A stretch of DNA of 58,705 nucleotides from Candidatus Brocadiia bacterium (GTDB taxonomy: Bacteria > Planctomycetota > Brocadiia > SM23-32), in assembly GCA_046538485.1 (NCBI GenBank), contig JBKHIT010000028.1:1-58705 (forward strand). The letters run 5' to 3'. Position numbers and translations under genes: made by a program. The notes beneath the pieces are model-generated. The model had not been told where the DNA came from. It saw only the letters and a list, made by a program, of their open reading frames with translations, and searched no databases. Shown piece after piece: positions 1,025 through 37,225 of this stretch. Each line of letters opens with the position of its first letter. Within the stretch, counting starts at the first letter, position 1.

Positions 1025-4000
1025 ATGTTTGAAATTATGAAGAGACACAACAGGGAGTTCCGCCGATCAGGCTGGTTCTTGGCCATCTGTCTTCTGCTTG
1101 CGTTTCTGGTGGTTTCAGCTCATGGTGCGGGGGGGGAGCAGGGATTTTCGCTGGCGCTCAGCCGGGGCGACATTGATTTTGATGCGTGCCGGATATACGC
1201 GGACGGGAAAGGCCGAAAGGTGCGGGTCCGGAAGATGTTGCAGGCGATGGGAATCGAAAAAGTAACGGGGGATACCGAACACTGGTGGCGGCGCTGGTCG
1301 GCGGGGAAGGTGGGCTATACGGAATCGCAGAAAGGAATCACTCACGTCTTCCAGTACCGGATTGCTCTCAAAGAACCTGTGGAAATTGGATCGATTCTTT
1401 TTCCGAATCAGGAGGTTCGGATCCTGAAGGCCGATGCTCCTTACCCCGGCGACCCTGAGAAAAAGGAACACTGGCGGCGTGTCAAAGTGCCGCCGAGACA
1501 GGGACGAGTCAAGATCGCGCCCCTGCCGCCCGGCACGAAGACGCGAGCGATTCTGCTGACTGATCGTGTAAAACGCGGCCGCAGCTCGGCGCTGCCCCTT
1601 CGCCTTTACAAACAAAGGCTTTTTAATATTGCAGACCGGGCTCGGGTGCGCGCCAAAAATGAATACCACGTTCCGCGAAGCGAAACGGTCTACCGCGCAA
1701 ATAACCTGGCAAAAGGACGGGGGAAATGGCAGAACAACGGGAAAAATGACGACGGACTGGTCACCGGTCCGTTCATTTCGGACGTGCAACCGTCATGGTA
1801 TATTCTGTCGTGGGACAAACCGCGGGAGATCGCCGGTGTTTTCGTTCGGGACAATTTTTCGAAAGTCGTTCTGGAGAAATTCGAAGGGGCAGAAGGTATA
1901 TCGCCGCTTGTCGGTGTCGACCGCGAATGGCGCAGGGTCAAGGAGTCTCAGATTGCACGGCATGATCTGTATGTCAGGAGCGACTACGGACGCTGGGCAA
2001 TTTTTTCGCCTCCTCTCAAGACGCGCGGGTTCCGATTTCTGATCGAGAAAACCTGGGAACGATCGCACCATCGACGCGTGGAATCTCAGATCGCCTGGAT
2101 GAATTCCCTGCTGATCCTTACGGATTTGGAAGACCGCGAAGTCCCGCCGCCTGCCGATGAAGGTCCTCCTCCGCCACCCGTGTCGATCTCCTATGACGTG
2201 CCGGTGGCCGGCACGGTAAGTATGGCAATCGATAACGAAGAGGGTACGCGGGTGAGGAATATTGTGAGCCGAGCATCCCGGGAAAAAGGATCGCATGAGG
2301 AATACTGGGACTTGAAATCTGAAAGCGGGAAGTTTGTCGAGCCGGGTACCTATAAATGGAAAGGTATCACGGGCCCGAAACTGGAACTCGAGTACGAGAT
2401 GAGCGTTTATCCGAACGTCACGGTGCATCATCCGGACAGGACCGCGTGGCTGAACGGTCGCAGTGGCTCCGGCGGCTGGCTGGCGGATCATTCGCCGCCG
2501 TTCGGGGGCGATGCGGGAGGCGACCGGGTGTGTTTCACCTGTCCGGTGCCGGAAGCCGGCGTCGGGTTCATCGTCTGCGACCTCTCGGGAAAAAAACTCT
2601 GGGGTATCCACGGTTTTGCAGCGTGGAGCGGCGGCCGAAGAATCGCCTGCAACGGCAAAACAACCTATGTCGAACAATATCGCGGGGGACGCGACCGCAT
2701 CTGGGCGGTGGACCTGGAGTCTCAGAATGTAAAGACGATCATCGACCGTGGCCACAGTGAGAGACGCCGCCGCCGTATCACCGGCCTGGCGGTTCACGGG
2801 GACAGAGTTTTCGCGGCGGTTAACGCCCATGGCGCCTGGATTGCCAATGCGACGGGCGCCGACGCTGTTGATATCACGAAGTGTCTTCCCCGGTACAAGG
2901 AAAAACGCGAACCCCGCAAAAAATATGAAGTTGTGCCCGACCCCCGAAACGATTTTCTCAGATTGCTCCGGCTCAAAGGCACCCCGCCCGGATACGCCCC
3001 GGACCACGGTCTGACCTGGCTCTCATCCACGGAAGGGCCTGGCGCGCAGCAATACATCATGGTGGCGTTCAAAAAACCCGTCAACATCGGCAGTTGCGTC
3101 TATCCCGTACCACAGAATAAAAAATATGAGATCCGCCTCAGCCTGCTGAAAGAAGATGCTCCCTACCCCCCGGATCCCGAGAATCGAGATTTCTGGGAAC
3201 CTTTCGAGACCCACGGTGACCTGGCGTGGGATATTGCTCAAGCACCGGAACAGGCGCGGACGCGTGCTCTGCTGATACGGTTTGTCAAAGGCGGAACCGA
3301 CGAATTTTCGAAGGTGTTAAGAGACGAGGGGGGGGAGGGTAAGAAGAAAACCGGTTTCTTCCCCTCGGCTGACGATGCATCGGATTTCGGCATGGAGGGC
3401 GAGGAAGAAGGTGGCGGCGTGATGGGTGGCGGCCGTTCGTGGAAAGCACGTTTGGAAGGAATGCAGATTCTACGCCGCCGTTTCAAAAACCTGTTCGGCA
3501 GCTGCAAAGTGCGCGTCAGCTCCGGACACGTTGAGGAAACCGGCAAATGGGTGGCAGAACGCTCTGCACCGCTTACCGAGTCCAATCCGGCCGTCTATCT
3601 GATGGAATGGAATAAGCCGGTGGAACTGAGGGGACTGGCCATCAAGGAGATCGATGCGAAAGAAACCAGAATCGATATCTGGACCGGACCCGAGACCGGT
3701 GAAATTCCGCTTATGGGCCAGGCGCAATGGAAAACCGTCGATACGTTCGTGCCGCGACGTCGGATGGAACATGTGAATTTTGACGGCCATAATGCGAACG
3801 CTCTGTATATGAACGGGAAAGTGGATTTCGGAGAGACTATCCGCACACGTGCTGTGCGATTGCGGGCCGTATCTCAGTGGACGACCGAAACTCGCGAAGG
3901 AAGTTGCGCGAAAGGTCGTCTGCAGCTGGACCCGACGCGGTGCCGCGTGTTCGGGGTGGCGCCGCTCCAATACGTCGGGGGCGAAGTACCGGTCGATCCC

Positions 4001-6436
4001 CGAACCACCCAGCGCATCGAGGTCATTGACCCCAGAGCGAAATCCGACGAGAAAACGATCGTAAAAGAAATCCACATCCCCCATCCCGGCGATATGGAAG
4101 TGAACCATGAAGGCGACCTGTTCACAATTTCAGAGGGTCAGGTCGTGCGGGTGGACCTGAGCGGGGAGGGTCAGCATGAGGATGTGATAACGGATCTCAA
4201 AAATCCCAGGGCGCTCGGAATCGACCACGAGGGTAGATTTTACGTTTTCGATACCCATCCCGAACGAAAAGTCATTCGGGTCTACGATCCACGGGGTAAA
4301 TTCCTGAGATCCATCGGGAAGGCGGGTGGATATCAGCCAGGTCCGTGGGACCCGATGCGCTTTAACAATCTGTCGGCCGTGAGCCCGGCTAAAGACGGGA
4401 AGTTGTGGGTCGTGGATTCAGGATACTGGCCCAAACGCGTGGCATGTTTCACACAGGAAGGGGAACATATCCGGGATTACCTTGGTCCAACTCAATACGG
4501 GGGCGGTGGAGTGCTGGATCCCTACGAAAGGACCCGTTTGGTCTACGGGCCTCTGGAATTTGAAATCGACTGGGAAACGGGCAAATCGCGCCTGAAGAAC
4601 CTCCTCTGGACAAGGGGTGGCTGGCCGCGCGGGGAGATTCATATCAAATACAAAGGTCACGACTATTTCACCAACCAGCCTCCGGGAGCCCGCGGTTCTA
4701 TGCCGGTGGGAATGGTATATCTCTACGAAAAAGATCATCTCAAACCGGCCGCTGCGGTGGGAATGGCGGATGTGTTCTCGCCACTGGAAAAACCGGAGAT
4801 TGTGGAAAAAGCTGGCCGCCGGATTCTCCGCAACCTGGAGTTCATCTGGGCCGACCGTGATGGAAACGGCCAGGTGGACGCTCCAGAGGTGCAATTCCAG
4901 CCGCGCAACCTTTCAAAATTGACCCGTTTCAATCGGGATATGGGGGTCCAGGCCGGGCGATGGCGCTATGTGGTCGATAAAGTTCTTGATAACGGCGTTC
5001 CTATCTACAAGAAAGTGGAAACTCCGGTTCCGAAAGGGGGACAGGTCTTCCGGTTCCAGGACGGCACTTTTTACAGGATGGGCGGATTGTCCGGCGGGGG
5101 AGGTCCCGAGATGGGATTCCGCAAGGACGGGGCCCTCTGGTGGACTTACGAGAACGAAGGGGCCGGCGTCCAGTCGATCCGTCACTGCGGACCATACACG
5201 CCGGGGCAGGTCGTGGGACAGTTTGGACTGGCCGGTTACGCTGTGGCGGCCGGCGGTGATATGGGAGAGTTTTTTGTAACGCGGGCCAACCGGGGCTCCT
5301 GGTTTCTCTGGACCACCGACGGGCTTTTGGCCAGCCGAATATTCAAATCGCCCTACCAGAAAGACGATATTCTCTGGGCGATGCCCGAGAACGACCGAAA
5401 TATGGACCTGTCCGATGTGTCACTGAAACAGGAACATTTCAGAGGGTGGTTCTGCCGGTCGCTGGAAGATGATAAATATTATGCCGTGGCTGGAAAACCG
5501 CACGCAAGCGTCGTCGAGGTGAAAGGTATCGATGATTTCACGCGCATGGGCGGAACGTTGAAAATCACGGCCGAGGATATTGCGGAGGCGATCAAATGGG
5601 AGCGAAAGGCTGAGAGGGCAAAAGCCAAAAATCGCAATCTGCGCTACTACCACTGTTACAAGACCGATCAAAAAGTGCGGGCCGACGGTCGGTTGGATGA
5701 GTGGGAAGGCTATCCGCGGGCCCATATCGGCGACAACATGTCGTTCGTGATGTCGCACAAAGACGGCGCGTTGAACCTGGCCTATGAAGTCAGAAATATG
5801 ACTGACCTTGTGAACAAAGGGAATAAATGGCAGACGCTGTTCGAGACCGGGGCGTGTCTCGATCTTATGATAGGTACCAATCCCACGGCTCCCCCGGACC
5901 GAAAGGCGGCGGTCCAGGGGGATAAGCGCATTCTGATCACGCATTACAAAGGAGATCTGGTAGCGGTGATGTACCAACCCGTCTCGCCCGGTGCGCCGGA
6001 AAAATATGCATGGAGTATTGAGTCTCCGGTTTTCAAGGTATCTTTCGACGAAGTTCGCCGGCTTGAGGACGCAGAACTCGGGTATCGCCGCTACAACAAG
6101 CGGGAAAGCGATCAGTTGAGCCATTTCGTGCTGGAAGCGGTTATACCGCTTGGTCGTCTTGGTATTGAAATGAAACCAAACCTGAGGGTGAAAATGGACT
6201 GGGGGTATCTGCGGTCCAATAAACACGGAACCGACGTGATGGAGCGGATCTACTGGGCGAATCAGGCGACGAGCATCCTGGCCGATACACCTTCCGAGGC
6301 GCGTCTTGAACCGGATATGTGGGGTTATGTGCAGTTTCATGATCGGGTTTGGGGTATGGGCACGGGTCTCAATCCGCGGTCGATGATTGAGGATGAGAAG
6401 GAAGAGGAAATCGATCTGGATGATCTGGGGTTGTGA
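1025..6436 (+). CDS. Large secreted multidomain protein: duplicated beta-sandwich module, FlgD-like Ig domain, NHL/beta-propeller, C-terminal CBM9/DOMON-like domain
   Basis: 1803-aa ORF; signal peptide (..LLLAFLVVSAHG); FlgD-Ig-like SYDVPVAGTVSMAIDNEEGTRVRN..WDLKSESGKFVEPGTYKW; NHL-like PRALGIDHEGRFYVFD; ADGRLDEW at the start of the C-terminal domain. Confidence 0.85.
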   Translation: MFEIMKRHNREFRRSGWFLAICLLLAFLVVSAHGAGGEQGFSLALSRGDIDFDACRIYADGKGRKVRVRKMLQAMGIEKVTGDTEHWWRRWSAGKVGYTESQKGITHVFQYRIALKEPVEIGSILFPNQEVRILKADAPYPGDPEKKEHWRRVKVPPRQGRVKIAPLPPGTKTRAILLTDRVKRGRSSALPLRLYKQRLFNIADRARVRAKNEYHVPRSETVYRANNLAKGRGKWQNNGKNDDGLVTGPFISDVQPSWYILSWDKPREIAGVFVRDNFSKVVLEKFEGAEGISPLVGVDREWRRVKESQIARHDLYVRSDYGRWAIFSPPLKTRGFRFLIEKTWERSHHRRVESQIAWMNSLLILTDLEDREVPPPADEGPPPPPVSISYDVPVAGTVSMAIDNEEGTRVRNIVSRASREKGSHEEYWDLKSESGKFVEPGTYKWKGITGPKLELEYEMSVYPNVTVHHPDRTAWLNGRSGSGGWLADHSPPFGGDAGGDRVCFTCPVPEAGVGFIVCDLSGKKLWGIHGFAAWSGGRRIACNGKTTYVEQYRGGRDRIWAVDLESQNVKTIIDRGHSERRRRRITGLAVHGDRVFAAVNAHGAWIANATGADAVDITKCLPRYKEKREPRKKYEVVPDPRNDFLRLLRLKGTPPGYAPDHGLTWLSSTEGPGAQQYIMVAFKKPVNIGSCVYPVPQNKKYEIRLSLLKEDAPYPPDPENRDFWEPFETHGDLAWDIAQAPEQARTRALLIRFVKGGTDEFSKVLRDEGGEGKKKTGFFPSADDASDFGMEGEEEGGGVMGGGRSWKARLEGMQILRRRFKNLFGSCKVRVSSGHVEETGKWVAERSAPLTESNPAVYLMEWNKPVELRGLAIKEIDAKETRIDIWTGPETGEIPLMGQAQWKTVDTFVPRRRMEHVNFDGHNANALYMNGKVDFGETIRTRAVRLRAVSQWTTETREGSCAKGRLQLDPTRCRVFGVAPLQYVGGEVPVDPRTTQRIEVIDPRAKSDEKTIVKEIHIPHPGDMEVNHEGDLFTISEGQVVRVDLSGEGQHEDVITDLKNPRALGIDHEGRFYVFDTHPERKVIRVYDPRGKFLRSIGKAGGYQPGPWDPMRFNNLSAVSPAKDGKLWVVDSGYWPKRVACFTQEGEHIRDYLGPTQYGGGGVLDPYERTRLVYGPLEFEIDWETGKSRLKNLLWTRGGWPRGEIHIKYKGHDYFTNQPPGARGSMPVGMVYLYEKDHLKPAAAVGMADVFSPLEKPEIVEKAGRRILRNLEFIWADRDGNGQVDAPEVQFQPRNLSKLTRFNRDMGVQAGRWRYVVDKVLDNGVPIYKKVETPVPKGGQVFRFQDGTFYRMGGLSGGGGPEMGFRKDGALWWTYENEGAGVQSIRHCGPYTPGQVVGQFGLAGYAVAAGGDMGEFFVTRANRGSWFLWTTDGLLASRIFKSPYQKDDILWAMPENDRNMDLSDVSLKQEHFRGWFCRSLEDDKYYAVAGKPHASVVEVKGIDDFTRMGGTLKITAEDIAEAIKWERKAERAKAKNRNLRYYHCYKTDQKVRADGRLDEWEGYPRAHIGDNMSFVMSHKDGALNLAYEVRNMTDLVNKGNKWQTLFETGACLDLMIGTNPTAPPDRKAAVQGDKRILITHYKGDLVAVMYQPVSPGAPEKYAWSIESPVFKVSFDEVRRLEDAELGYRRYNKRESDQLSHFVLEAVIPLGRLGIEMKPNLRVKMDWGYLRSNKHGTDVMERIYWANQATSILADTPSEARLEPDMWGYVQFHDRVWGMGTGLNPRSMIEDEKEEEIDLDDLGL

Positions 6437-6465
6437 ATTCTCTTTTTGCCTTTTGTCTTCCTTCG

Positions 6466-6684
6466 TTTTGTGGTGGACTTACAGCCCACTATCCTTTTTT
6501 CTGCGTTGTTGCCCCAGGGCTCCGAAGGCCTTCAGCCCTCTGCACCCCGGGCTGCTATATTTTGCCCTTTCAGGGCAGGGCGCGCTCGGACCTGCCGTTG
6601 GTCGTTCTGCTGTTTTGTTGGGAGATCTGTCGGCTGATGAGCCGCGTTCTGAACTCCAGCCGCTGGCTGAAGTCCAGTCCGCTC
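6466..6684 (+). repeat. REP mosaic: family B and family A
   Basis: GTGGACTTACAGCCCAC..CCCAGGGCTCCGA..CCTTCAGCC..TCTGCACCCCGGGCT..GCCCTTTCAGGG (6466-6575); CCGCGTTCTGAACTCCAGC..GCTGAAGTCCAGTCCGCTC (6642-6684). Confidence 0.85.
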
Positions 6685-10581: not shown

Positions 10582-10981
10582 AACGACACAGCGGTGAGTA
10601 AAACGTCCCGTCGGTCCGTTTTAACACACCGCAATCCACAGCGCGCCGTTGGCGCGCGGGACACCACACCGGCCGGTGCCGCCGACATCCCTGGTTTGCG
10701 GGAAATGTCTCGTGGTGCAAGAGGCAACAATTTTGTGGTGGGCCTTCAGCCCACTTTTTTCTCAATGCCCATCTGTACCCAGGCTCCGACGACCTTCAGC
10801 CGTCTGCACCCTGGACTACAATGTTACGCCCTTTCAGGTCGGAACAGCCCCATCCGGTGACCCCGATTGCCGAGAACCAGCCCCGCGGGAGCGGTGCTGA
10901 AGTCCAGTCCGTTCCCGGTTTTGCAGGTTCCAGCCCCTGGACCGGGTTGATAGACCCGGCTGTCGTTGTTTTCAATTTCGG
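10582..10981 (+). repeat. Long composite repeat block, copy 1 (copy 2 at 14127-14452)
   Basis: Closely similar from AACGACACAGCGGTGAGTAAAACGTCCCG through TTCAATTTCGG; contains a family B unit and an extra family A unit. Confidence 0.9.
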
Positions 10982-11072
10982 TGCTTCTTATGTCAAACGG
11001 ATGGGCCGTTTCGGCCTTCGGCCGAACGGCGAAACGGCTTAAGAACGACATTTATAAGGTTTTCAGGGGTTT

Positions 11073-11612
11073 TTAGTTTGCGGGGGGTTTTCGCCCGCAA
11101 ATCGGTTTGAAAACGGCATCCTGGGGTTGTTTGCTCCATTTTGCGTCCTTTTTGGGCTTTGAAATTCCATTCGGGCCTTCCCGAAACGACCCACCGCACG
11201 CGGCCGCCGCGCCGCGGGCGGCGCAGTTGCGGCGGTGAAAAGCTTCATCGTATTCGGTGCGGTTTCGCCAGCTGTTTCGCACCATCCTGGCGTGCACCTC
11301 CGCGTCAACGCGGTCGTCTTTATTGCCGGCGGGATAGTAGATATCTCGGGCTCGGTCGGCGCTGAGGGGATTGAGCGGATAAACTACATAGCCCTCGGAG
11401 CACAAAATATGGGGGAGGATGTCGTTTTTGCGGTCGATTCCTGTTCGCACCTGCTGGGGGTCGGGCTCCAGCTCTTTAATCTGCTCGATCATCTGCTGGG
11501 CGCCTTCTGCGGAGCGCTGCACGGATCCCTTTTTGACAAGGTTCCCATTTTCGGCGAGAATCGCGAATGCATTAGGGCTTTTCTGTCCCCAATCGATACC
11601 GACCTCTAACAT
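11073..11612 (-). pseudogene. IS110 recombinase remnant: RuvC-like DEDD domain fused in frame to the extreme C-terminal tail
   Basis: VGIDWG, GYVVYPLNP and GNKDDRVDA motifs, then directly WRNRTEYDEAFH (typical IS110 C-terminus); coiled-coil and catalytic-Ser Tnp domain absent; AGGAG RBS. Confidence 0.85.
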
Positions 11613-11624
11613 TGGTCATTCTCC

Positions 11625-11864
11625 TGTATTCAGGAGGAAAAAGGGCGCAGAGAGCAAACGGTGGATCTGCCGCCTCGCAAGCAAGTTCTCCTACATCGGC
11701 CCTATCCGCTGTTTTAAGGTGGAGGGGCTTCTTCTGAAGGACACTCTGCGAGGGATCGAAGGTCGGGGGGGCTGACCGAAGTGGCTGTCTTAACCGCAGC
11801 AGAGTGCGGAGGCCCTACCGGCACTCCGGATCCATCGCGCGCGGGGGGCTGCGCAGCCCCCCGC
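11625..11864 (-). ncRNA. Putative IS110 bridge RNA in the left-end non-coding region
   Basis: About 240 nt non-coding upstream of the recombinase; perfect 24-nt palindrome at 11841-11864; AAGAAGCCCCT (11733-11723) matches the predicted donor junction AAGAAGCACCT at 10/11; ATAGG (11705-11701) is complementary to junction CCTAT. Confidence 0.6.
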
Positions 11865-11916
11865 ACAACCTAATGCATAGGGTAGATTGTGTCATTTACA
11901 CAACAGGATAACTGTA

Positions 11917-12089
11917 GGAGTGCGGCGACCGCGAGTCGCGGTGGACTACCTGGAAGTTAGCCCGGGGCTCCGACGACTTTCAGCCGTCTGCACTCCGGGC
12001 TGCTATGTTGGGCCCTTTCAGGGTATGAGACGGCGGAGTGCGCTCGGCGATCGCGCCTGCAAACATGTGGCATCCCGGATACGTGAGGA
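11917..12089 (+). repeat. REP mosaic: families E and B
   Basis: GGAGTGCGGCGACCGCGAGTCGCGGTGGACTAC (also about 14560 and 46170), then a family B unit and a tail similar to about 14757-14885. Confidence 0.8.
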
Positions 12090-12225
12090 TGGATTGGTTG
12101 CCGGGAGTTTTCGCCACCCAGACGCGGCATGGCACGGAGTGGTTTGTCAAGGAGTTGTGGGTCTCCACCGTACGGCGGACAGTGGCGAACCAGCCGTTGG
12201 AAAAAAGTAGGGGAGTCGCGCTCGT

Positions 12226-13743
12226 TCACCCCAGGAAAAGTTGTTTGGTCGCGAACTGCGGGTCGCTGGTGAGATTTACTCCCAGACGGCGCAGTCCGCC
12301 TTCATCGCCCGGGGTTGGAATATGGCTGAGGTGCAGTTCGCATTTCTGGAGATTCTTCAGTTGTTCCAGACACTGTTGTGCGGTGGGGTTTGTGGCGGCG
12401 CTGATGCTCAGGGCGATGAGGGTTTCTTCCAGATCCAGACTGACCGTCCCGGCATCCAGAATGTCTCCCTTGAGCCAACCCACTGACTTGATGACGTTGC
12501 GAGGCAGCAGATCAATATCGTCGGGTATGCCCGCGAGTTTCTTGATCGCATTGAGGACAAGCGCACTTGTGGAATGGAGCAGGGCCGAGTTTTTGCCCGT
12601 TATGATCTCCCCGTCCGGCAGTTCGATCGCAGCGCCGCAAAAAATGCCCTCGTGTCCTTTCCCCTCTGCTTCGGCCTCTTCGGCAGCCCCTCGTGCTTCG
12701 GCAACGACTGGACGTGATTCCGGGCCGATATCGAGTTCTTCCATGAGGACTTTGGTGCGTTTAACGGTCTCTTTGTCGGCGAATCCCATAGCGTATTCGC
12801 AACTGTATCGGAAATAGCGTCGGACGATTTCCTGTTTTGCCGCACGCCGGACCGCTTCGTCGTCCACGATGGCAAACCCAGCCCTGTTGACGCCCATATC
12901 TGTCGGAGACTGATAGGGAGACTCAGCCTCTGTAATGCGTTCGAGAATTCGTTTGAGAACGGGGAAAGCTTCCACGTCGCGGTTGTAATTTATTGCCGTC
13001 TCGTCATATGCTTCCAGATGAAACGGGTCGACCTGGTTGAAGTCGCCCAGGTCCGCGGTCGCGGCCTCATACGCAATATTGACGGGATGTTTGAGGGGGA
13101 GATTCCAGATGGGGAAAGTCTCGAATTTGGCGTATCCCGCTTCCTTGCCGTGTCTGTGGTCGTGATAGAGCATTGTGAGACATGTCGCGAGTTTTCCACT
13201 TCCGGGTCCCGGTGCAGTCACCACAACAAGCGGTTTTTCAGTTTCGATAAAGTCGTTCGAGCCATACCCTTCGTCGCTGACGACTTTATCGACATCGGCC
13301 GGGTAGCCTTTGATATGACTGTGGGTGTATACGTCAACGTCGCGGCGTTCGAGCTTGTTTTTGAAGACTTTGACCGAGGGCTGATTTTCGTAGCGGGTGA
13401 TTACCACCGCGCGCACATCCAGATCCCACTCGCGGATATCGTCGATAAGTTTCAACGCATCGACGTCATAGGTGATCCCGAAATCGGCGCGGAGTTTTTT
13501 TCGTTCGATATCTCCTGCGTAAATACACAGTATAATTTCGGTTTGGTCTTTGATTTTTTGCAGGAGGCGCATTTTGACATTGGGATCGAAACCGGGCAGC
13601 ACGCGGGACGCGTGGTAATCGAACAATAGTTTTCCACCAAATTCGAGGTACAGCTTTTCCCCGGATTCATTGACGCGTTTGAGAATAGCATCGGACTGTT
13701 CGTTGAGATATTTTTCGTTATCAAACCCAACTTCGTGCGGCAT
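12226..13743 (-). CDS. DUF1846 (UPF0371) family protein
   Basis: [28 protein letters not shown]-loop, [11 protein letters not shown] and SPTDMGVN motifs; start set at MPHEVGF behind AAGGA. Confidence 0.92.
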
Positions 13744-13926
13744 GCGATCTTCCTTTTGGAGGCTATGTTTCTTGTCGGCTTCTACAAGAGCTGGTTCAGA
13801 GAAAGGGTAATCGGGCCGGAGGGGAAGGTCAAATACGTAGAAGGAATTTGCGCTGAGGGCCGTTCCTCGGTTTGACAACCGTGGAGTTGCTTGAGATTGT
13901 CACCGACTCCCGAACGAAAGTTGAAT

Positions 13927-15040
13927 GTAGACTCGAGTTCAGCTGAGCCCGCCACCGGGGGGGCGAGACTGGACTTGAGGCGGGCAATCCCCGGGAAATA
14001 ACAAAACAAGCAGCAAAGTCCCACCAATCCACGCTGCGTTCTGAACTCCAGCCCCGCAGAGCGGCGCTGAAGTCCAGTCCGCGAGGTGTTGGCCCGTTCA
14101 GAGGGAGAGAGAAGAGATAAAGGCGGAACGACACAGCGGTGAGTAAAACGTCCCGTCGGGCCGTTTTAACACACCGCAATCCACAGCGCGCCGTTGGCGC
14201 GCGGGACTTCGCATGGGCCGGTGCCGCCGACATCCCGTGGTTGCGGGAAATGTCTCGTGGTGCAGGAGGTAACAGTTTTGTGGTGGGCCTTCAGCCCACT
14301 TTTTCCTCAATGGATACCTGTACCCCCAGGGTTCCGACGACCTTCAGCCGTCTGCACCCCGGGCTACTATGTTACGCCCTTTCAGGTCGGAAAAGCCGCT
14401 GGACCGGGTTGATATACCCGGCTGTCGTGGCTGTCGTTGTTTTCAATTTCGGAGTGCGGCGCCTCGGCGCCGCTTTCCCTGCTGTTCGTTTCGGACTGCG
14501 GTGGCTTGCCACCGCTTTGATTGCGTTTCTTCTTTTTCCGTTATGCCGTTGCGTCTTTCGAGTGCGGGCGACCGCGAGTGGCGGTGGACTATCTGGAAGG
14601 AGCTATCCAGATGCAAATAAGTTGCACAAAAACTTGCGCACTTTCCTCCATGAAACCCCCAGCGGGGGCGCCGCTGTGTCGTTATCTTTTTGCTGTTTGT
14701 CTTCTGTCGTTTTGTTGGGGGCCTTCAGCCCACTTTTTTCTCAACGGACACCTGTGCCCCGGGGCTCCGACGACCTTCAGCCGTCTGCACCCTGGGCTGG
14801 TATGTTACGCCCCTTCAGGGCATCAGACGGCAGGGCGCGCTCGGCGATGACGCCCTACGTGTGTGTGGCGTCCGGCATACGGGAGACCGTGGCATGTTGT
14901 GGGAAGTTCCCAGAGTGCGAGAGCTGTAGGTCCGCGTTCTGAACTCCAGCCTCCGGCTGAAGTCCAGTGCGCTGGCGGGGATTGAGACTCGAGTTCAGCT
15001 GAGCCCGCCACCAGGGGGCGAGACTGGACTTGAGGCGGAC
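13927..15040 (+). repeat. About 1.1-kb intergenic mosaic of REP families F, A, B and E, including composite block copy 2
   Basis: F 13927-13985; A 14036-14082; block 14127-14452; E about 14560-14600; B 14710-14820; A 14932-14972; F 14986-15040. Confidence 0.9.
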
Positions 15041-15179
15041 GAACTCTGGGAAATGCGGGGTAGCCGTATGTCCACATCGGCGAGATGCACCTGTTGTTTT
15101 CCGCGGGCGGTTTATGTGTGGAGGCAGCCTGGGGGTCGGGTTGCCAGATCCAGATTGGTCCCTGAGAGGCAGAGAAGGC

Positions 15180-16850
15180 TCATTGCGTCTCAACCCTCAG
15201 ATACTCCCGGAGTTCTTGAAGCGTTGCAGGACCAATACCTTCCACTTCGAGCAAATCGTCAATCGCGCTGAACTCTCCGACACGATCGCGGTGGGCTGTT
15301 ATCCGCCGGGCAAGGGTCTCGCCGATACCGGGCAGGCGCCGGAACTGTTCCCAGGAGGTACGGTTGATATCGAGCGGGGCTGAAGCTGTCAGAAGACGCG
15401 TCGCACCGGGGAAAGCTGTCAGTTTGATGCTGTCGAGTGTCAGCATACCTTTAAAGCGAGCGCGAATCCATACCTGGACACTCCTGACCGAGCGTGGAAT
15501 GTCCGAAATCGTATGTTGTTTGGTGACCGATTGGCCTTCAACGACAACCGGGCAGGTGCGCGCGCCTCGTTCGGGAGCTCGGTCGGCGTACAGGAAGTCA
15601 AAGACGACAACGGGGGTTTCGCCGGCGAAACCTTCGGACCTTTGCCCTTCGATTTCAACGCGGATTTTGTCGCTACCATCCAGAATCACCTTCGGCAGAT
15701 AGATTTCCAGCGTTTTTCCACGAGTTTCGGAAGAACATATCAGGGATGAAGCAACAGTCACGGTCTGTTGCCGGGCATCACCGAGTTTGATCTTCCAGCC
15801 GGGAGGCGGTCCGCCTTGACCGCTCGATTCGACGGGCAGGAACTGGTGCTCGAATGGTTGCCGCCCGGGTCGGGCCGTAACGACTTTCGATTCGGGCGAG
15901 GTCAGAGTTGCCGGCCGGGGTAATGATTTCCAGAAGGCGGCGAATCCCGCGGCCGCCACGACCAGAAGCGTGGCTGCCGCGGCAAGTGCGATTTTCCAGC
16001 GGACCAGACGCCCTGCCAGTTTTTCCAGTTCCCGTTCATCAACCACGGATTCGGACAGAGATGAGGTGCCCGGGCGGAAATCCAGCAAAGCCCGGACCGG
16101 TTTTTCGTCTGCCCCGTCGAATTTCTTGAGCAGATACCGCGCGAGATCTTTTTCCTGATAGGTCTCGCGCACGGCCGCACGGTAGGCCTCGAGGTCGTAC
16201 GCCACACGCTGCCACTGAATCATACGCTTTTCTGAGTCATAGACCGCGTAACAGGCGCGGAAATCGTCGTCACGGGAGACGCCGACGGACCCGCAGTTGA
16301 TGATATAGCGGTATCCGGGCTGGAGGGGCATGCTCCGGCGTCCTGGTTTGATGCGGCGGTATTTGCCTTCCGGGGATAGAACATGGAGTCTTGGGACGTG
16401 AGTGTGGCCGATAAAGAGCAGATCCTCTTCGGTCTGATCCCACTGTGGCTCGGCGTCTTTTCGTTTGAGCACGTAGCTGAAATCCTTGGGCTCGGCGGGG
16501 CCGCCGTGACTGCATCGGAAGTTCTTGTGTCGTATCGAAAGGGGAGTCTCTTTGAAAATCTTGACGGCCTGTTCATCGAGGTTAGAGCGAGTGATATCAA
16601 TCATTCGCCGTGCATAACGGTTGAAACAACTCGCGCTCATCAGCCCACCCACAACGGCATCGTGATTGCCGAGAACAAAGTGGTGGACGCTGCTATGGAG
16701 ATTTGTCAGGACTTCGGCGGGAGAAGGCCCGTACCCGGTGATGTCGCCCAGGCAGATGGTTTTATCGACGTTCAGAGCGGCGATGTCGGCTTTGACAGCG
16801 TTCCATGCCTGAAGATTGGCATGGATATCAGATACGAAAGCAATGCGCAT
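15180..16850 (-). CDS. Metallophosphoesterase + transmembrane helix + extracytoplasmic domain + ComEA-like helix-hairpin-helix fusion
   Basis: SDIH, LGD, GNHD, SHG and GHTH calcineurin-like motifs; TM IALAAAATLLVVAAAGFAAFW; C-terminal LDINRTS..LPGIGETLARRI..GEFSAIDDLLEVEGIGP. Confidence 0.88.
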   Translation of the reverse strand: MRIAFVSDIHANLQAWNAVKADIAALNVDKTICLGDITGYGPSPAEVLTNLHSSVHHFVLGNHDAVVGGLMSASCFNRYARRMIDITRSNLDEQAVKIFKETPLSIRHKNFRCSHGGPAEPKDFSYVLKRKDAEPQWDQTEEDLLFIGHTHVPRLHVLSPEGKYRRIKPGRRSMPLQPGYRYIINCGSVGVSRDDDFRACYAVYDSEKRMIQWQRVAYDLEAYRAAVRETYQEKDLARYLLKKFDGADEKPVRALLDFRPGTSSLSESVVDERELEKLAGRLVRWKIALAAAATLLVVAAAGFAAFWKSLPRPATLTSPESKVVTARPGRQPFEHQFLPVESSGQGGPPPGWKIKLGDARQQTVTVASSLICSSETRGKTLEIYLPKVILDGSDKIRVEIEGQRSEGFAGETPVVVFDFLYADRAPERGARTCPVVVEGQSVTKQHTISDIPRSVRSVQVWIRARFKGMLTLDSIKLTAFPGATRLLTASAPLDINRTSWEQFRRLPGIGETLARRITAHRDRVGEFSAIDDLLEVEGIGPATLQELREYLRVETQ

Positions 16851-16993
16851 GGTTCAAATCCCCATAGTTTTTTATCCCGGTTACGTTTCGGCGGTTCGGT
16901 GGCAGTGTTTTTTCTGCCGGAGGCGAACAATCAAAGTTCAGGGCTGATTGCCGTCCCCGCGCCGGATGCGGAGCAGTAAGGGGCCTGGCTGTT

Positions 16994-18436
16994 TTATTCC
17001 AGTTGTTCGAGTCTCTGCAGCAACAGTTCCCTTGCTTTCTGCGGGTCGGCCTGTCCTTGGGTCAGCCGCATGACCTGGCCGATGAGTGCTCCGACAGCCT
17101 GGTCTTTGCCGTTGAGGTAATCCTGAACCGCCTGTTCGGCTTCCTCCATGGCCTCTTCCACAACCGGTTCGAGTTCATCGGCGCCGCTGATTGCTTCGAG
17201 GCCCTCTTCTGCGACGATGCTTCCTGCATCGCGTCCGGTTTCCAGCATTTTTTCCAGCACATCACGAGCGGCTTTCGCTGTGATCTTATCCTCATCTTCC
17301 AGCCGGATAAGTTCGGCGAGACGATCGGGACTTATCTCAAATTCTTCAATCGAAATCTTTCGTTCGTTCAGTATTGCGAGGATATCGTTCATGATCCAGT
17401 TAGCGACACTCTTCGGTGCGTCATGGTATTCGAGTGTCCCTTCAAGATAATCCGCGACCTCCTGGTTTTCGGTCAGAACTTCAGCTTCGTATTCGGAAAG
17501 GTCGTATTCTTCCATAAAACGGGCCCGCCGCTGGCCCGGCAGCTCTGGAACATCACGCCGGAGACGCTGCAGCATTTCGTCGCTGATATGGTATGGTACG
17601 AGATCGGGTTCGGGAAAATACCGGTAATCGTGGGCCTCTTCTTTGGACCGCATCCGCTGGCTTTTCTCCCGTTCTGCATCCCAGAGACGTGTCTCCCTCT
17701 CGACAGTGCCGCCTTCCTCAAGCACATTTTGCTGGCGGTTGATCTCATATTCGAGGCATCGAGTGACGGCTTTGATCGAGTTCAGGTTTTTGATTTCCAC
17801 TCTGGCGCCAAACTCCTCCGCGTCAGGCTCCCGGAGGCTGATGGAGGTTTCGTAGCGCAACGAGCCTTCCTGCATTTTGCAGTCGGAAACTTCGGTGTAA
17901 CGAAGAATCTGGCGCAATGTGTGCATGTAGGAGTGCGCCTCGCGGACGCTCCTCATATCCGGCCCGCTGACGATTTCCAGCAGAGGCGTCCCGGCCCGAT
18001 TCAGATCGACCAGACTGTAGTCGGCGTGGCGTTGCTCGGAATGTATGTTCTTTCCGGCGTCTTCTTCGAGGTGGACATTCCAGATGCCAATTTTCTTCGG
18101 CCCCTCTTCGAGTTCGATCTCCAGGTAACCGTTCTCGCCGAGGTTGCTGTAATTCTGGGATATCTGGTAGTTTTTCGGCAAATCCGGATAGTAATAGTTT
18201 TTGCGATCGAAGAAAGTGTCTTGATTAATATCGCAGTTCAGCGCAATGGCAGCCCGGATGGCCAGCTTGAATGCCCGTTCATTCAGTACCGGGAGCACGC
18301 CAGGCATCCCGAGACAAACCGGACAGGTCTGCGTGTTGGGCGGCTGGCCAAACTCTGTGCTGCAACTGCACCAGAGCTTACTTTCCGTGAGCAGTTCCGC
18401 GTGCGTTTCAAGCCCGATGATGATTTCGTAATCCAT
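16994..18436 (-). CDS. gatB: Asp/Glu-tRNA amidotransferase subunit B
   Basis: IGLETHAEL, CLGMPGVLP, FDRKNYYYPDLPKNYQISQ, EEDAGK, DYRYFPEPDL; start at MDYEIII. Confidence 0.97.
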   Translation of the reverse strand: MDYEIIIGLETHAELLTESKLWCSCSTEFGQPPNTQTCPVCLGMPGVLPVLNERAFKLAIRAAIALNCDINQDTFFDRKNYYYPDLPKNYQISQNYSNLGENGYLEIELEEGPKKIGIWNVHLEEDAGKNIHSEQRHADYSLVDLNRAGTPLLEIVSGPDMRSVREAHSYMHTLRQILRYTEVSDCKMQEGSLRYETSISLREPDAEEFGARVEIKNLNSIKAVTRCLEYEINRQQNVLEEGGTVERETRLWDAEREKSQRMRSKEEAHDYRYFPEPDLVPYHISDEMLQRLRRDVPELPGQRRARFMEEYDLSEYEAEVLTENQEVADYLEGTLEYHDAPKSVANWIMNDILAILNERKISIEEFEISPDRLAELIRLEDEDKITAKAARDVLEKMLETGRDAGSIVAEEGLEAISGADELEPVVEEAMEEAEQAVQDYLNGKDQAVGALIGQVMRLTQGQADPQKARELLLQRLEQLE

Positions 18437-18477
18437 GGCCGTGTCTTTGTTCTCAGAATAACCCCGAAAGGGCATTT

Positions 18478-18506
18478 AATGTAGTCAGCACTCGGCCCTA
18501 CGTCAA
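18478..18506 (-). promoter_or_regulatory. Sigma70-like promoter of gatB
   Basis: TTGACG-N17-TACATT. Confidence 0.55.
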
Positions 18507-18575
18507 GGGCGGACGCCAGAAGGGACGGAAGGGACTTAAGGGACCAGGGGGGCGCGTGGGCTACTGTGTGTTGTG

Positions 18576-19089
18576 TCAGACGGTCCGGAGTTCGAGGTTT
18601 TTCAGAACATCGTCTTCCCAGCGAGTAAGTTCTGTAGCGAGTTGCTCAGTGAGTTCCGGCCGTTGTTCCGAAAGGTCTGTGGTCTCGTTCAGGTCGGTCT
18701 CCATATCGAACAGGAATCGAGAGTCTTCATCGACGACGAACTTCCACCTGTCGCGTCGAACGGCTTTTCGATCCCGGTAGCGCCAGAAAACGCTCCTTTC
18801 GGGCAAAGCCTCTTCATCCAGCATCAGGGTGGTGATATCGATGCCATCGAGGGGATTGGGTGGGTCGGCTTCAAACCCGGCAAGTGCTGCAAACGTGGGG
18901 AACCAATCCATGGAGAGAACCGTCTCGCCGGTCCGCGTATTGGGGGTGATCTGTCCCGGCCAGTGGGCGATAGCCGGTACCCGATGTCCGCCTTTCAATG
19001 GTCTCGCTTCCGAAACAGCCCAGATCGCCGTATCCAAGGTCGTCGGCCATGATGAAAATAATATTCGGTGGTCTGTTCTCGTCAGCCAA
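18576..19089 (-). pseudogene. Sulfatase pseudogene with large internal deletion and frameshift
   Basis: N-terminal [23 protein letters not shown] joined near 18995, in another frame, to C-terminal [37 protein letters not shown]; catalytic CxPxR core missing. Confidence 0.88.
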
Positions 19090-19167
19090 AATGGATCCTC
19101 CCGAATGGCTTTTCTAAAAACTGAAGCTCGGGTTCAAAATGCCGAATTCACCGGTGCAAAGGGTGTT

Positions 19168-19196
19168 ACTTTAGTGCCGCCCGATAGCCTCGTCAA
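19168..19196 (-). promoter_or_regulatory. Sigma70-like promoter upstream of the sulfatase remnant
   Basis: TTGACG-N17-TAAAGT. Confidence 0.45.
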
Positions 19197-19244
19197 GATG
19201 AGGGACGGAATGGAGGAACCCGGGACGAGGGCTAAGAAACGCAT

Positions 19245-19810
19245 GTAGCACAGGCTCTCCAGCCTGTGGACCGGGGCGTGAGCCCCGGATTGGTTGTGAG
19301 GGCCAAAGTTTGGGGTCAGCCGGCGCCGCGCCGCGTTCTGGACTCCAGTCCGCTCTTTAGCCCTGCAGGGGCTTTTTATAAAAGCCCAGGTCGTAGTGGT
19401 CTGAAAGACCACGAAGGCCGGGAGATGAGATGTCGCCGGGAAGACGTGGGCTGAAAGCCCACCGCATTGGTTTCTCAGGCGCCGTCCGGCGAATGAACAA
19501 AATGACCCCGGGGAACTTTGAACGCCACACGAAAACAAAGGCGTAGAGGTATCCGAGGATGGACGTTCTGCGCCACCCTTTCGGGGTTTGGAAATTATGT
19601 GGAGTGTCCGAGTCCCGGGGCTTGCCCGAACAACGGGTGCGCCCCGGGCTATGTCTGCTATCGCTCCTTCTCAGGGGCTCAAATCAAAATAGCGAAGCCC
19701 GCCAAGTGGGCCGGGCAGAGATGGTCCGCGTGGGTAGACTAAAGCCCGGGCAAGCAAAGCCCACGAAGTGGGCGATGTAGGGGTAGCGCGGTGCGCAGTC
19801 GCGCCCATTT
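19245..19810 (+). repeat. REP/hairpin mosaic (family C, collapsed A, G and others)
   Basis: C 19245-19268; collapsed A 19331-19355; GTGGTCTGAAAGACCAC and GTGGGCTGAAAGCCCAC hairpins; G about 19613-19680. Confidence 0.75.
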
Positions 19811-19908
19811 TTGGCCCGCAAGCTCCGGGTTAGATCTGGAGTGGGGTATTGTCGACTCGAGGGAATGCACGCTCAAGCTTCAACTCACCTGGGCCGCACG
19901 GCAACAGA

Positions 19909-22900
19909 TCATTTCGCCGTGCAAACAATCTGATCTTTGCTCCGCACGTATATCACTGTGGACGATTCGGCGGGTTTTGCCACGTTCATGAAACCTTCCT
20001 CGTCCCCCCACAATACCCATTCAATATTGGTTTCAAGACGTTTGAGTGGAGCGTCGGTACTTTTTTTGACGGTAAGGCCTTTTTTTGACGATGCAATTCG
20101 GATGAGACCTTCCGAGCTTACGGCGATCCCATCTATAACGGCTTTAATACCGTCGAGTTCCTTTTCGCAGAGCACTGTGAAACCGTTCAAACTGGCCGCG
20201 TGGAGTCCTTTCCACCCCGGGGCCGTCAGGGCCCCGTTTCGGCCTCCGCCTACCTCTGGATTGACATCTCCGGTGAGCAAATCCAGTCCGGGATACTTTT
20301 TCTTCTCGCTGACTGATCGGTAGTACGGCGTGCAGGCGGCCGCCGTGATATCTCCGGTTCTGCCGACTTGATGCAGGATTGGGTTTTCCAGCGGCAAGCC
20401 TGATTTGTGATCCTGATGAAGCCGTTTCATAATTTTTCGTAGAAATTGGGGATGTTCTTGCGACGCGCTTTCCAGTCCGTCGAAAATCACGCAGCCCCGG
20501 TATTCGTCGGGAGAATGCCAGAGAACGACGGCGTGCTGATTTTTCTTTGAAAGAAGCGGCCGTATATTTCCGTCTTTGATTTTGAAAGAGCAGCGCAACT
20601 TGGCCCGGGACACGTCGAGTGATCCCCCATTGGCAGTCGTGAAACTGTGTTCTTTGAGTTTTGGTTTTCTGACGCTCTCGCAGCTCAGTTTGCCGCTCCA
20701 GGGCCAGGCGTTAGCACCGGCAAGATAGCCCGGATTGACGTACAGAATGCCTTTGCGCTTTTTCAACCACTGGAGGATGGCACTACGTGCGGCTTCTGTA
20801 ATGTTTTGTGGGTGTCTGAAAAACATGAGGCGGTAATTTTTCAACGCCAATCTTTCGCATTTATTGGCATCACAGAGGAAATCGTACGTTTCGGGGATGG
20901 CCATGCCGGGGACAAGCGGATAGGGCGTCCGCGGGCGTGTCCACACGCTGACGCCGGGTCGCACAACGAGGACGGGCGGTTGAGGGGACATTCGGGGAAG
21001 TCCCTGGAGGATGCGGGCACAATCGTAGACGTATTTCTGGTAGATGCAGAAACCGCGCATGAAATTTTGTTTGCCGGTTTCTATTTTCTGAGCAATTTCT
21101 TCCTTTCGGCGGGCTTCTTCTTCCTCTTTTTTTTCAGCATCCAGATCCAGAAGCGTTTCTTCTTCCTCGCGTTCTTCAACGACCGTGTCGGCATCGGGGG
21201 TTTTGACTTCGGGGGCGTAATCTTCTTCGGCACCTCTCCAGGCGTAGTTGATGGCTTTCTTCAAAACCGGACTTTCTCGGCCAAGATCTTCGACAAGGAC
21301 GGGTACGCCGACCATGCAGCCGGTTTCCCGACGATCGAAATCTTTTTTGACGAAGATCCAGATGCTGAACCAGCCGGGATCCGCCCCGGCAGCGTAGGCG
21401 CTGACCGAGTCGGCCCACGCGCGGCGGCTCCGGGTATCGATGAGATTCTCCGGCATCTTTTTTGTCCGTCTCACCGCATTCATTTCGTAACCTCCGATCC
21501 CGAGGCTCAGCCAGATGACGGGGCGCTCGGGCCAGAGTGTGCGGTATCGGCGGATCATGTTGTATACGGAATTCCGATTGCCGGCTTTGTAGTGATAAAT
21601 ACCGCCCACGTCGAACTTCCACCGGTGATCGGCCGGAGTAGGGCCTGTGCCGTGAAGAGCCTGACCGGGCAGGAACGTCGCGACCTGGATCCCGGGTCGG
21701 AGCCGGCCGTAGCGCAGATGCACGTACCGATAAAGTTCGTTGAAACCGTCAATTGACCGTTCCAGCGCCCATTTTCGCCAAAGACGCTTCTGCACGGAAC
21801 TCAGATTCTCCAGCTGACCGTTTATTTTGGCCGAGTCAAACCCCTGTCTCCGGCAGAACAGTCGCCAGCCATCCTCCCAGAGTGTCGTTGTGCGAAGATT
21901 CATCGTTTCTTCGCCAAAAACCATCCCATCGATATAAGCCAGATTCTCGAGAGGAATTTCATCTTCCATTCTGAGCCAAAAGCGATCTCGCCAGTGACGA
22001 TTTACGGTCACCAGGCCGGGTTGACTGACGGGGCTCACGCGCCCAAACAGAATTTTCCCTGCTTCCCAGGCGCGTTTCCAGTTTTCATCGACATTGATGT
22101 TCAGATTGTAATACGCGGTGAAGGGCGATTCCGCGGCGTCCCGACCGTGTCCACAGAGCCATGTTTCGACTTTCTTCTCTCCGACTTTGTGGGCTGCCGT
22201 TGGGCGGGGAGGCAGGGGACTGCCCATGGCCCGGGCGATGGCATCTTTGAGATAGAGTTTCGTTGCGCGGTCGGTCTCATTTTCGGCCAGCTGTTTCAAT
22301 TCATCGATATGGTTTTTGGCGGGTTGTTGCGCCAGAAGGGCGGCAGCGTGGAGTCGTAGCCAGCGGTATGGCGAGCGGGCGGCGGAGAGCAATTTTACGG
22401 TAACGGTTTCCGGCGACCGTTGGGTAAGTTTTTGCAGGCCAAACGCTCGGACATGTGGATCTCGGTTCTCGGCCCCTTTTTTCAGGGCTTCTATTGCCCA
22501 TTCGTTCTCATCTTGCGCGAGGCGGGCAATGATGCGTTTCCGGATGTACGGATGTTCCGTCTGGAGATCGAACAGCATCGCCTGCTGCATGTCGTCTGGC
22601 CGGAAGGGACCCAGCGCAATGCGTGCCTGTCGTCCCACCGGTCCACAGGGGTCATCGGTGAGGATTTTTGTTTTTTCGAGCAGTTTGGCCGAAGCCTTTT
22701 GGGGAAAATTGTTCAGGAGTGCGAGGACAACTTTCTCCCGCGGATCGTCGAGCATTTTGAGGAGTCGTTCGGGGCGCCTGGCCTGGAGCCGAACCAGCGC
22801 CCGTTGCGCGGGCACTCGCACCCCCGGATTGCCCTGGCGAACAAGCTCAGTCAGCAGGGGAATGTCTTGAGAAATGGCGGATTCAGCGAGGCTCTTCACG

Positions 22901-26698: not shown

Positions 26699-27036
26699 TC
26701 TGCTCCTCCGTATGGAAGGCTTTGAGGCGGCGTTTCAAGCGACTTTACTGTAGCTCGCGTCTCCCGGCAAACGAATCACATTGTTTGGCTGCATTGATGA
26801 GCAGGGTACAATACATTAGGCTCTGTCTGAGAATGCGGTCATCGGACCGAGAGCGAGCGAATTTGTGGCTGGTGCGGACGCCAAAGCAGGCCTATCCAGT
26901 GGAGATAAGCCGATACAGGCGGACAAAGCCGGCCGCGAATACAGCCGCTCGAATCCGGATCCGCATTTTCAGACAGAGCTTGATGCACAGCCGGTTGAGG
27001 AAATTATGTGTCTTCTCAATACAGCGGGAGTTGTGT

Positions 27037-31334: not shown

Positions 31335-31423
31335 ACAATTTCTCCTCTATTCTGAAAAAGAGCACTTTTTGTATATGTCTGATCACCTACTCAAGCCTGG
31401 GTTTCCCGGGCAACCTGTTTGGC

Positions 31424-32313: not shown

Positions 32314-32372
32314 ATATCCTCCCCTTTATCACAAAGAAAGAACAACTTATTGTGTATATCTGAGCGCGTATT

Positions 32373-34724: not shown

Positions 34725-34805
34725 CGACGATCCTCCAATTGCACGAGGAGAGATTTTTTTTTGGAATAGTTCTTTCCTGTATTTTACCCTTTTTTCGCAA
34801 AATCT

Positions 34806-36859: not shown

Positions 36860-37127
36860 TATCCTGCAAAGGTCTGCTCAAATACTGTTGGTATTATATT
36901 CGATAAAAGAACACAATGCAAGCAGCAATTTGCACTGCGGGTCGTTTTTGGGTTAAGGGGGGGGATTTGGCTGGAATGGCCGTTCAGGCACACCGACTAT
37001 CCATGAGCGCGAAACCACCCGGCTCCGAGGGCGGGGCATCCATCTCGGTGTTCTCCGCCATGGGGGTAGGTTGAAGCACGATGATCCCCACGGCAAGGGT
37101 GGGGTATTATCTGCTGCCGGAAACGCA

Positions 37128-37173: not shown

Positions 37174-37225
37174 AGACGTTGGAAAATGGCAACACGCGGA
37201 AACATTGACCGGGGCAGATTAAAGC

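Follow-up and report, generated by a model that had tools for sequence, protein, structure and literature searches.

We describe a predicted membrane-spanning phosphoesterase encoded on the reverse strand, at positions 15180–16850, of a DNA stretch of 58,705 nt from a Candidatus Brocadiia bacterium (assembly GCA_046538485.1, contig JBKHIT010000028.1; this whole stretch is called the window below). The protein joins a metallophosphoesterase (MPE) domain, a single transmembrane (TM) helix, a beta-sandwich and a C-terminal double helix-hairpin-helix (HhH) domain of the ComEA type. Tentatively, we favour the view that it is a receptor-like or polymer-tethered bitopic inner-membrane phosphoesterase, in the HhH branch of an MPE-TM-beta-sandwich family found throughout the Planctomycetota–Verrucomicrobiota–Chlamydiota (PVC) group. 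The architecture is clean and conserved, whereas its interpretation as a DNA sensor depends on a domain absent from most of the family. The protein is laid out as follows.

15180..16850, (-): whole open reading frame (ORF; P0001), 556 aa plus stop, from the ORF call with an in-frame TGA lying 6 nt before the ATG.
16113..16850, (-): MPE domain, residues 1–246, probably cytoplasmic, from Pfam, the 3rqz profile, the structural model, a fold match and motifs.
15996..16112, (-): linker between enzyme and membrane, residues 247–285, from the predicted local distance difference test (pLDDT) and conservation in alignments.
15936..15992, (-): single TM helix, residues 287–305, probably N-in/C-out, from Kyte-Doolittle hydropathy and 27 homologues.
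15396..15893, (-): predicted beta-sandwich ectodomain, residues 320–485, a jelly-roll resembling carbohydrate-binding modules (CBMs) and lectins, from model pLDDT, fold matches and a profile search.
15195..15377, (-): ComEA-type double HhH, residues 492–552, with GIG hairpins at 508–510 and 538–540, from HHH_3, 2duy and 8dss.

The two ends of the protein were recognized by Pfam well above the cut-offs. The N-terminus matched Metallophos_2 (residues 1–205, E 1.8e-15, 57.7 bits against a cut-off of 27) and Metallophos (residues 1–152, 56.9 bits against 21.5), and the C-terminus matched HHH_3 (residues 492–552, E 2.3e-17, 63.3 bits against 27). NCBIfam returned a YfcE-like phosphodiesterase and comEA at the two ends, with every family-level model below its curated cut-off. 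A preliminary description of the gene, made from its sequence, had listed MPE motifs, no signal peptide, one TM helix, a beta-rich region and a C-terminal HhH pair, and each of these items proved correct. It had also allowed that the fusion might be unique to this assembly, but the same fusion is carried by 16 other protein clusters and a contig from a second study bridges the junction. These clusters came from a search of 5.8 billion clustered proteins (E≤1e-3), in which HHH_3 was present in 17 of the best 120 of 245 homologues, the window's own protein included. The 17 carriers are 550–614 aa long, share 37–49% identity over 99–100% of the query and are drawn from ENA, Logan, JGI and NCBI; three of them belong to named Planctomycetota (P0011, P0013 and locus L014). 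Among sequencing runs, a 769-nt contig of run X2 covers positions 15298–16066 (HhH, beta-sandwich and TM helix) with 1 difference, and a 590-nt contig from run X3, which belongs to a separate study, covers 15100–15605 across the junction of beta-sandwich and HhH with 9 differences. Run X1, a possible source of this DNA, was not counted among the independent assemblies, and no RNA run was among the sequencing runs listed as holding the sequence. Given the 16 other clusters and the second-study contigs over the junction, the MPE-HhH fusion is real and not a product of chance or assembly.

MPEs bind metal through the motifs DxH, GD, GNH[D/E], H and GHxH. The corresponding residues D8, H10, D36, N62, H63, H115, H149 and H151 do not vary across 77 aligned members of the family, which leads us to expect a catalytically intact and active enzyme. 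With all motifs present and scores above the cut-offs of both profiles (PF12850 and PF00149), the domain belongs to the calcineurin-like MPE superfamily. The soluble MPE 3rqz was matched from the protein's residue 1 (sequence match E 1.5e-27, profile match E 4.4e-56), and 3qfm was matched by profile at E 6.6e-11. A model of residues 1–285 (pLDDT 89, ordered to about residue 246) resembled 3rqz (Z 31.7), 1nnw (Z 26.0) and 3qfm (SapH; Z 25.5), and all remaining MPEs, including PP5, calcineurin, YfcE, LpxH, Rv0805 and Mre11, reached Z ≤16. Whole-domain similarity in sequence and modelled fold, two C-terminal helices included, places the enzyme in the 3rqz/1nnw/SapH subgroup. According to its PDB title, 3qfm is a streptococcal asymmetric diadenosine tetraphosphate (Ap4A) hydrolase and phosphodiesterase. 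Since SapH is the nearest characterized relative, a dinucleoside polyphosphate or some other nucleotide phosphodiester is by analogy a likelier substrate than a phosphoprotein. Four other assignments were rejected: YfcE family phosphodiesterase (TIGR00040, 45.3 bits against a cut-off of 56.25), ApaH symmetrical Ap4A hydrolase (NF001204, 19.3 bits against 176), LpxH/LpxG-type lipid A hydrolase (nothing in NCBIfam at E≤1; LpxH fold match Z 12.6 against 31.7 for 3rqz) and Mre11/SbcD-type nuclease (fold match only Z 10–11.5).

Between enzyme and membrane the family shares the linker consensus R-E-L-I-D-F-x-P-G, in which F258 is invariant among the 77 sequences, and R253 and P260 are invariant in 27 aligned homologues and nearly so (≥90%) in the 77. 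The sole strongly hydrophobic segment of the protein is residues 287–305 (Kyte-Doolittle mean 2.32), and each of the 27 homologues has exactly one hydrophobic helix. When Lys and Arg were counted in the 15 residues on either side of the helix, the N-terminal side was richer in 23 of the 27, with 3 ties and 1 reversal. The in-frame TGA that precedes the ATG at 16850 by 6 nt excludes an N-terminal extension, and this stop together with the alignment to soluble 3rqz from residue 1 leaves no possibility of a signal peptide. The modules found at the C-terminus in this protein and its relatives (ComEA HhH, discoidin, laminin-G) are of kinds that usually lie outside the cytoplasm. Taken together, the missing export signal, the single helix, the charge bias and the kinds of C-terminal modules give good support to an N-in/C-out topology, in which we infer a cytoplasmic enzyme and a periplasmic beta-sandwich and HhH. 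The protein would thus be bitopic, with a binding domain and an enzyme on either side of one TM helix; the placement of enzyme and HhH on opposite sides of the membrane, as previously proposed, is the most probable one given the lack of a signal peptide, the single helix and the charge bias.

An AlphaFold2 model of residues 309–556 (69-row alignment; mean pLDDT 95.6, predicted template modelling score 0.85) consists of a beta-sandwich followed by a five-helix HhH pair. The beta-sandwich is without any Pfam family match. Residues ~330–485 resemble CBMs, best of all 4d0q (CBM70, hyaluronan-binding; Z 12.0), with CBM4, CBM16, CBM22 and CBM61 at Z 10–11, and the sandwich also resembles the ligand-binding domains (LBDs) of Eph receptors (Z 11.1–11.3; EphA3 LBD Z 11.3). 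These CBMs and Eph LBDs differ from it in sequence, at 5–16% identity, and because the jelly-roll is a common fold, the match is no pointer to the ligand. Four ectodomain positions, W352, Q362, G410 and G468, are invariant or nearly so in the 27- and 77-member alignments. A profile of the sandwich alone gave 226 matches at E≤1e-3 among 1.84 billion representative proteins. The best 150 of the 226 comprised 67 proteins with both MPE motifs (430–786 aa), 79 short pieces (72–434 aa) and 4 giant repeat proteins matched in several short stretches, and no other catalytic or signalling domain was present in 25 mid-length matches from these 150 that were scanned against Pfam. The profile search and the scan of these 25 matches suggest that the sandwich is family-specific rather than a promiscuous sensor module and is essentially found in the MPE-TM-beta-sandwich family alone.

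The C-terminal domain qualifies as a ComEA-type HhH domain, with an HHH_3 score above the cut-off, a double-HhH fold and both GIG hairpins intact. Its closest structures are ComEA DNA-binding domains (root-mean-square deviation 0.8–1.3 Å). Geobacillus ComEA 8dss superimposed at Z 13.1 (0.8 Å over 63 residues, 43% identity) and the Thermus ComEA-related 2duy at Z 11.1 (49% identity; sequence match E 7.4e-12), and Tex reached Z 12.3. Identity with ComEA as a whole protein was rejected (TIGR01259, 49.9 bits against 152.35; TIGR00426 for the HhH repeat region, 37.1 against 53.1), and a match to PsbU was weak (E 0.062 in the Pfam scan and 0.0036 in the NCBIfam scan). Net charge was discarded as a proxy for DNA binding: in the fused clade the HhH ranges from −8 to +7 (16 of 17 rows; P0003 was dropped as mis-delimited), and stand-alone ComEA-like domains at 10 Planctomycetota loci spread equally, from −6 to +7 (10 of 11 rows; L121 was dropped as mis-framed), so charge does not discriminate. 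Another Planctomycetota genome encodes a 577-aa protein (L169:517-2247 (+), G057:C183) with a signal peptide, UshA-type Metallophos, 5_nucleotid_C and HHH_3. It looks like a periplasmic or secreted DNA-targeted nucleotidase, in which the HhH would bring an exported nucleotide-cleaving enzyme to DNA, and this fusion suggests that the HhH is in use as a DNA-targeting device in the phylum.

Members of the MPE-TM-beta-sandwich family are typically ~490 aa long and occur in Planctomycetota, Verrucomicrobiota, Kiritimatiellia and Lentisphaerae. Apart from the 17 carriers, the homologues among the best 120 of 245 are ~475–520 aa long and without HhH, and those with a name belong to Kiritimatiellae, Lentisphaerae, Verrucomicrobiota or the 'PVC group'. 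We built a quick maximum-likelihood tree of 70 members with the HhH trimmed off. All 17 HhH rows fell into one clade (Shimodaira-Hasegawa-like approximate likelihood ratio test 99) together with one HhH-less row, P0017, from a 2.8-kb contig. As the 17 rows share one clade, the tree is consistent with a single, late gain of the HhH in a small clade. The view of the HhH as the defining part of a sensor, taken in the preliminary description, therefore did not hold, the HhH being an apparently late addition, probably gained once, that most family members are without. Other members end differently: P0166 (786 aa) carries a C-terminal F5/8 type C (discoidin) domain, the L020 protein (1037 aa) has C-terminal Laminin_G_3 and DUF2341, and Laminin_G_3 occurs in two Atlas clusters, one of 155 members (representative 911 aa) and one of 162 (representative 985 aa). 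Proteins fused to the HhH are rare: of 301 genomes sampled from the phylum, 6 gave a match at E≤1e-40, and the match was full-length in the protein's own genome only; a scan of species-representative contigs found one fused locus, L014, and no HhH-bearing form was among 46 metagenome loci matched by protein. Source records name the family 'metallophosphoesterase family protein', 'predicted phosphodiesterase' or similar. The literature yielded no description of a membrane-spanning MPE with a ComEA-type or lectin-like ectodomain, nor of the family, and like the earlier describer we found no characterized system of this architecture. The single paper found to cite 3rqz deals with an ars cluster.

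Some relatives depart from this plan. Tandem paralogues occur at two loci from Verrucomicrobiota/PVC (L016:5929-8725 and L019:4371-7086), each pair flanked by a P-type ATPase gene on one side and ruvX on the other. In each pair the first protein has the full MPE-TM-beta-sandwich plan (551 or 524 aa), and the second, of 362 aa, consists of MPE and TM parts with only a short basic tail on the outer side. In a named Planctomycetota metagenome-assembled genome, the closest relative of the enzyme domain (L015:6001-7524 (+), G016; 508 aa) shares 46% identity over residues 1–268. This protein has no strongly hydrophobic segment (best 19-residue Kyte-Doolittle mean 0.82); it may not be a membrane protein and may differ in its C-terminal half.

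In the mechanism that would go with a receptor-like or polymer-tethered enzyme, a periplasmic polymer would bind the ectodomain, in this clade dsDNA via the HhH and probably a glycan via the beta-sandwich. Binding would alter how the protein clusters or where it sits in the membrane, and this would change hydrolysis of a cytoplasmic substrate by the enzyme; instead of clustering by DNA or glycan, a partner might be recruited to the linker motif. A more ambitious version, which we consider improbable, makes the MPE-TM-beta-sandwich proteins an unrecognized class of single-pass receptors, in which periplasmic DNA would cluster the members of the HhH clade and so switch cytoplasmic hydrolysis of an Ap4A-like nucleotide signal, leading to competence, DNA scavenging or a phage alarm. 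A dedicated sensor of extracytoplasmic (periplasmic) DNA is possible but speculative. Several observations weigh against a receptor of this kind. The model predicts a disordered, flexible tether of about 40 residues (pLDDT <50 for the greater part of residues 253–285), which makes a piston-type, coiled-coil or rigid allosteric relay unlikely, and clustering or partner recruitment more plausible than a relay. Judging from the sequences, DNA cannot be the family's general ligand, because most members are without HhH. The HhH itself is net acidic (−3, isoelectric point 5.0). DNA binding by Vibrio cholerae ComEA is described as needing K62 and K63, 2 and 3 residues past the hairpin glycine G60 (PMC3879209), and the residues at these places here are T512 and L513, by residue numbering and not by alignment. 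Neither a recurring partner gene across 15 family loci nor a competence, defence or signalling partner at the window locus was found among the neighbours, and the genome encodes a separate canonical ComEA (131 aa, membrane-anchored) and ComEC on other contigs.

The protein may instead be a constitutive housekeeping phosphoesterase whose ectodomain just anchors or positions it at polymer-rich sites of the envelope, with the HhH as an extra anchor to periplasmic DNA. We judge this main rival somewhat unlikely, although it would suit the disordered tether, the housekeeping neighbours with no partner among them, the genome's four soluble paralogues from the same enzyme subgroup and a beta-sandwich not common to known signalling proteins among those examined. 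An enzyme that is simply anchored sits less well with the invariant F258 and the nearly invariant R253 and P260, which suggest a specific interaction, and with the repeated swapping of ectodomain modules (HhH, discoidin, laminin-G); swapping of ectodomain binding modules is the pattern of receptors. Enzyme and HhH might also lie on the same side of the membrane, in a phosphodiesterase or nucleotidase that would be targeted to DNA outside the cytoplasm and serve DNA scavenging. Same-side fusions of MPE and HhH do exist in the phylum, as L169 shows, but here the enzyme's first strand starts right at the N-terminus, a stop lies just upstream and there is no export signal, a folded domain of 285 residues would have to cross the membrane without a signal, the charge bias favours N-in and the enzyme subgroup consists of soluble proteins, all of which makes this arrangement highly improbable. 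A role as an accessory of DNA uptake, in which the protein would act as another membrane-anchored receptor of the ComEA kind, beside ComEA itself, and its enzyme would process DNA ends or nucleotides at the ComEC channel, we regard as very unlikely. The genome has both ComEC and ComEA, and ComEA of Gram-positive bacteria is described as likewise membrane-anchored (PMC9747964); against this role, the gene is unlinked to comEC and comEA, most of the family is without HhH and the enzyme is nearest to nucleotide hydrolases (Z 25–32) rather than Mre11/SbcD nucleases (Z 10–11.5). DNA binding by the HhH has to be considered separately. It is rather unlikely, in our view, that the HhH serves protein-protein contacts or holds another polyanion, like PsbU in photosystem II. 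The weak PsbU match, the spread of net charge in the fused clade (−8 to +7 in 16 of 17 rows) and the loss, by position, of the V. cholerae lysine pair would fit such a role. Both GIG hairpins are intact, though, the closest structures are ComEA DNA-binding domains and the phylum's stand-alone ComEA-like domains show the same charge spread. According to PMC9747964, HhH domains contact DNA mainly via backbone amides, and the DNA-contacting side chains of Geobacillus ComEA are K166, K195 and T196. By numbering from that source and PMC3879209, the equivalents after the two hairpins are T512 and L513, with R515 and R516 nearby, and A542 and T543. At the same places 2duy has V-L and A-T by alignment.

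The surroundings of the gene contribute two further features.

16994..18475, (-): gatB, the upstream neighbour across a 143-nt gap, recognized by GatB_N and GatB_Yqey in Pfam; context only and no part of the system.
13929..15054, (.): repeats dispersed genome-wide, in the downstream 1.3-kb intergenic region, from repeat matches; likewise context only.

Beyond the downstream repeats lies a DUF1846 gene. A repeat of ~110 nt (14275-14386 and 14709-14819) had 40 matches in the genome at 76–100% identity, its own copy included (40 of 88 candidates scored), and one of ~154 nt (13929-14090, with a partial copy at 14985-15054) had 58 matches (40 of 286 candidates scored); more repeat copies in the window lie at 6465-6574, 10731-10838, 11961-12022 and 46839-46948. 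The repeats of the downstream gap (13880-15180) look like intergenic elements of the miniature inverted-repeat transposable element (MITE) or repetitive extragenic palindromic (REP) kind. No Rfam family reached its gathering threshold in 11000-21000, repeats included, and a scan for promoters and terminators did no better than on shuffled sequence. Neighbours at the 14 other family loci include a fumarylacetoacetate (FAA) hydrolase (L014), P-type ATPase, RuvX, an RluD-like pseudouridine synthase, MnmE, MnmG, arginyl-tRNA synthetase (ArgRS), PriA, GroEL, acetate kinase and CorA, and two of the loci hold tandem paralogues. PADLOC assigned the protein to no defence family. The genome itself (5.19 Mb in 143 contigs, 88% complete) also holds a Tex-sized HHH_3 ORF and four soluble paralogues of the enzyme subgroup.

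Elsewhere the window contains genes for sulfatases, a heparinase II/III-like protein, beta-helix proteins and N-methyl/DUF1559 proteins, a repertoire in keeping with a polysaccharide-degrading PVC bacterium. Four genes with a prepilin-type N-methylation motif, one of them with DUF1559, stand beside DUF4838 and heparinase II/III-like genes (30498-38044 (-) and 26722-29973 (+)), and with the complete sulfatase at 42792-44309 and the beta-helix protein at 54604-56766 this cluster makes up a typical PVC polysaccharide-use neighbourhood. Beside gatB, at 18576-19089 (-), two short ORFs overlap in different frames; the 153-aa ORF matches SGSH_C (E 3e-9), the 72-aa ORF shows a sulfatase-like N-terminal motif by eye and is without a Pfam match at 1e-5, and the pair is probably a broken or frameshifted sulfatase gene. 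A 179-aa ORF at 11076-11612 (-) matches only the N-terminal part of DEDD_Tnp_IS110 (profile positions 1–111 of 155) and is likely a truncated insertion-sequence remnant. The 1803-aa ORF at 1025-6436 (+) is without a Pfam match at E≤1e-5.

Each half of the protein has known counterparts. SapH (Spr1479; 3qfm), 3rqz and 1nnw belong to the same MPE subgroup (Z 25.5–31.7 over ~220–232 residues) and have all the metal-binding motifs, but they are soluble single-domain proteins, of which 3rqz and 1nnw are uncharacterized, whereas here a tether joins the enzyme to a TM helix with an ectodomain beyond it. PASTA-domain Ser/Thr kinases are bitopic: their enzyme is cytoplasmic, they have a single TM helix, and their binding modules outside the cytoplasm differ from branch to branch. 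The layout described here is the same, with the differences that the output is an MPE and the tether is predicted to be disordered. The ComEA proteins of V. cholerae, Geobacillus (8dss) and Thermus thermophilus (2duy) show the same compact double-HhH fold, in which there is no connector helix. Like them, our protein appears to hold its HhH outside the cytoplasm, and it has one TM anchor as described for Gram-positive ComEA (PMC9747964); unlike in ComEA, the HhH forms the last 65 of 556 residues and follows a cytoplasmic enzyme and a beta-sandwich. A DNase I-like protein of Thioalkalivibrio is described with an HhH tail derived from ComEA (PMC4777378), and in it and in the L169 nucleotidase the ComEA-type HhH is likewise C-terminal on a phosphoester-cleaving enzyme. 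In those exported fusions enzyme and HhH are exported together and meet the same DNA, whereas here a TM helix stands between them and the enzyme belongs to another MPE subfamily. Bitopic receptor-type enzymes and ComEA-HhH fusions are thus known kinds; the combination of an MPE output with a lectin-like/ComEA ectodomain appears to be new relative to them.

If the ectodomain controls the enzyme, MPEs would join kinases, cyclases and cyclic di-GMP enzymes as outputs of bacterial transmembrane receptors, and the HhH clade would, if this is true, be a rare example of a cell directly reading periplasmic DNA. Even without signalling, the analysis provides an architecture, a probable topology and a fold for no fewer than 226 protein clusters, from polysaccharide-degrading PVC bacteria, whose sole present label is 'metallophosphoesterase family protein'.

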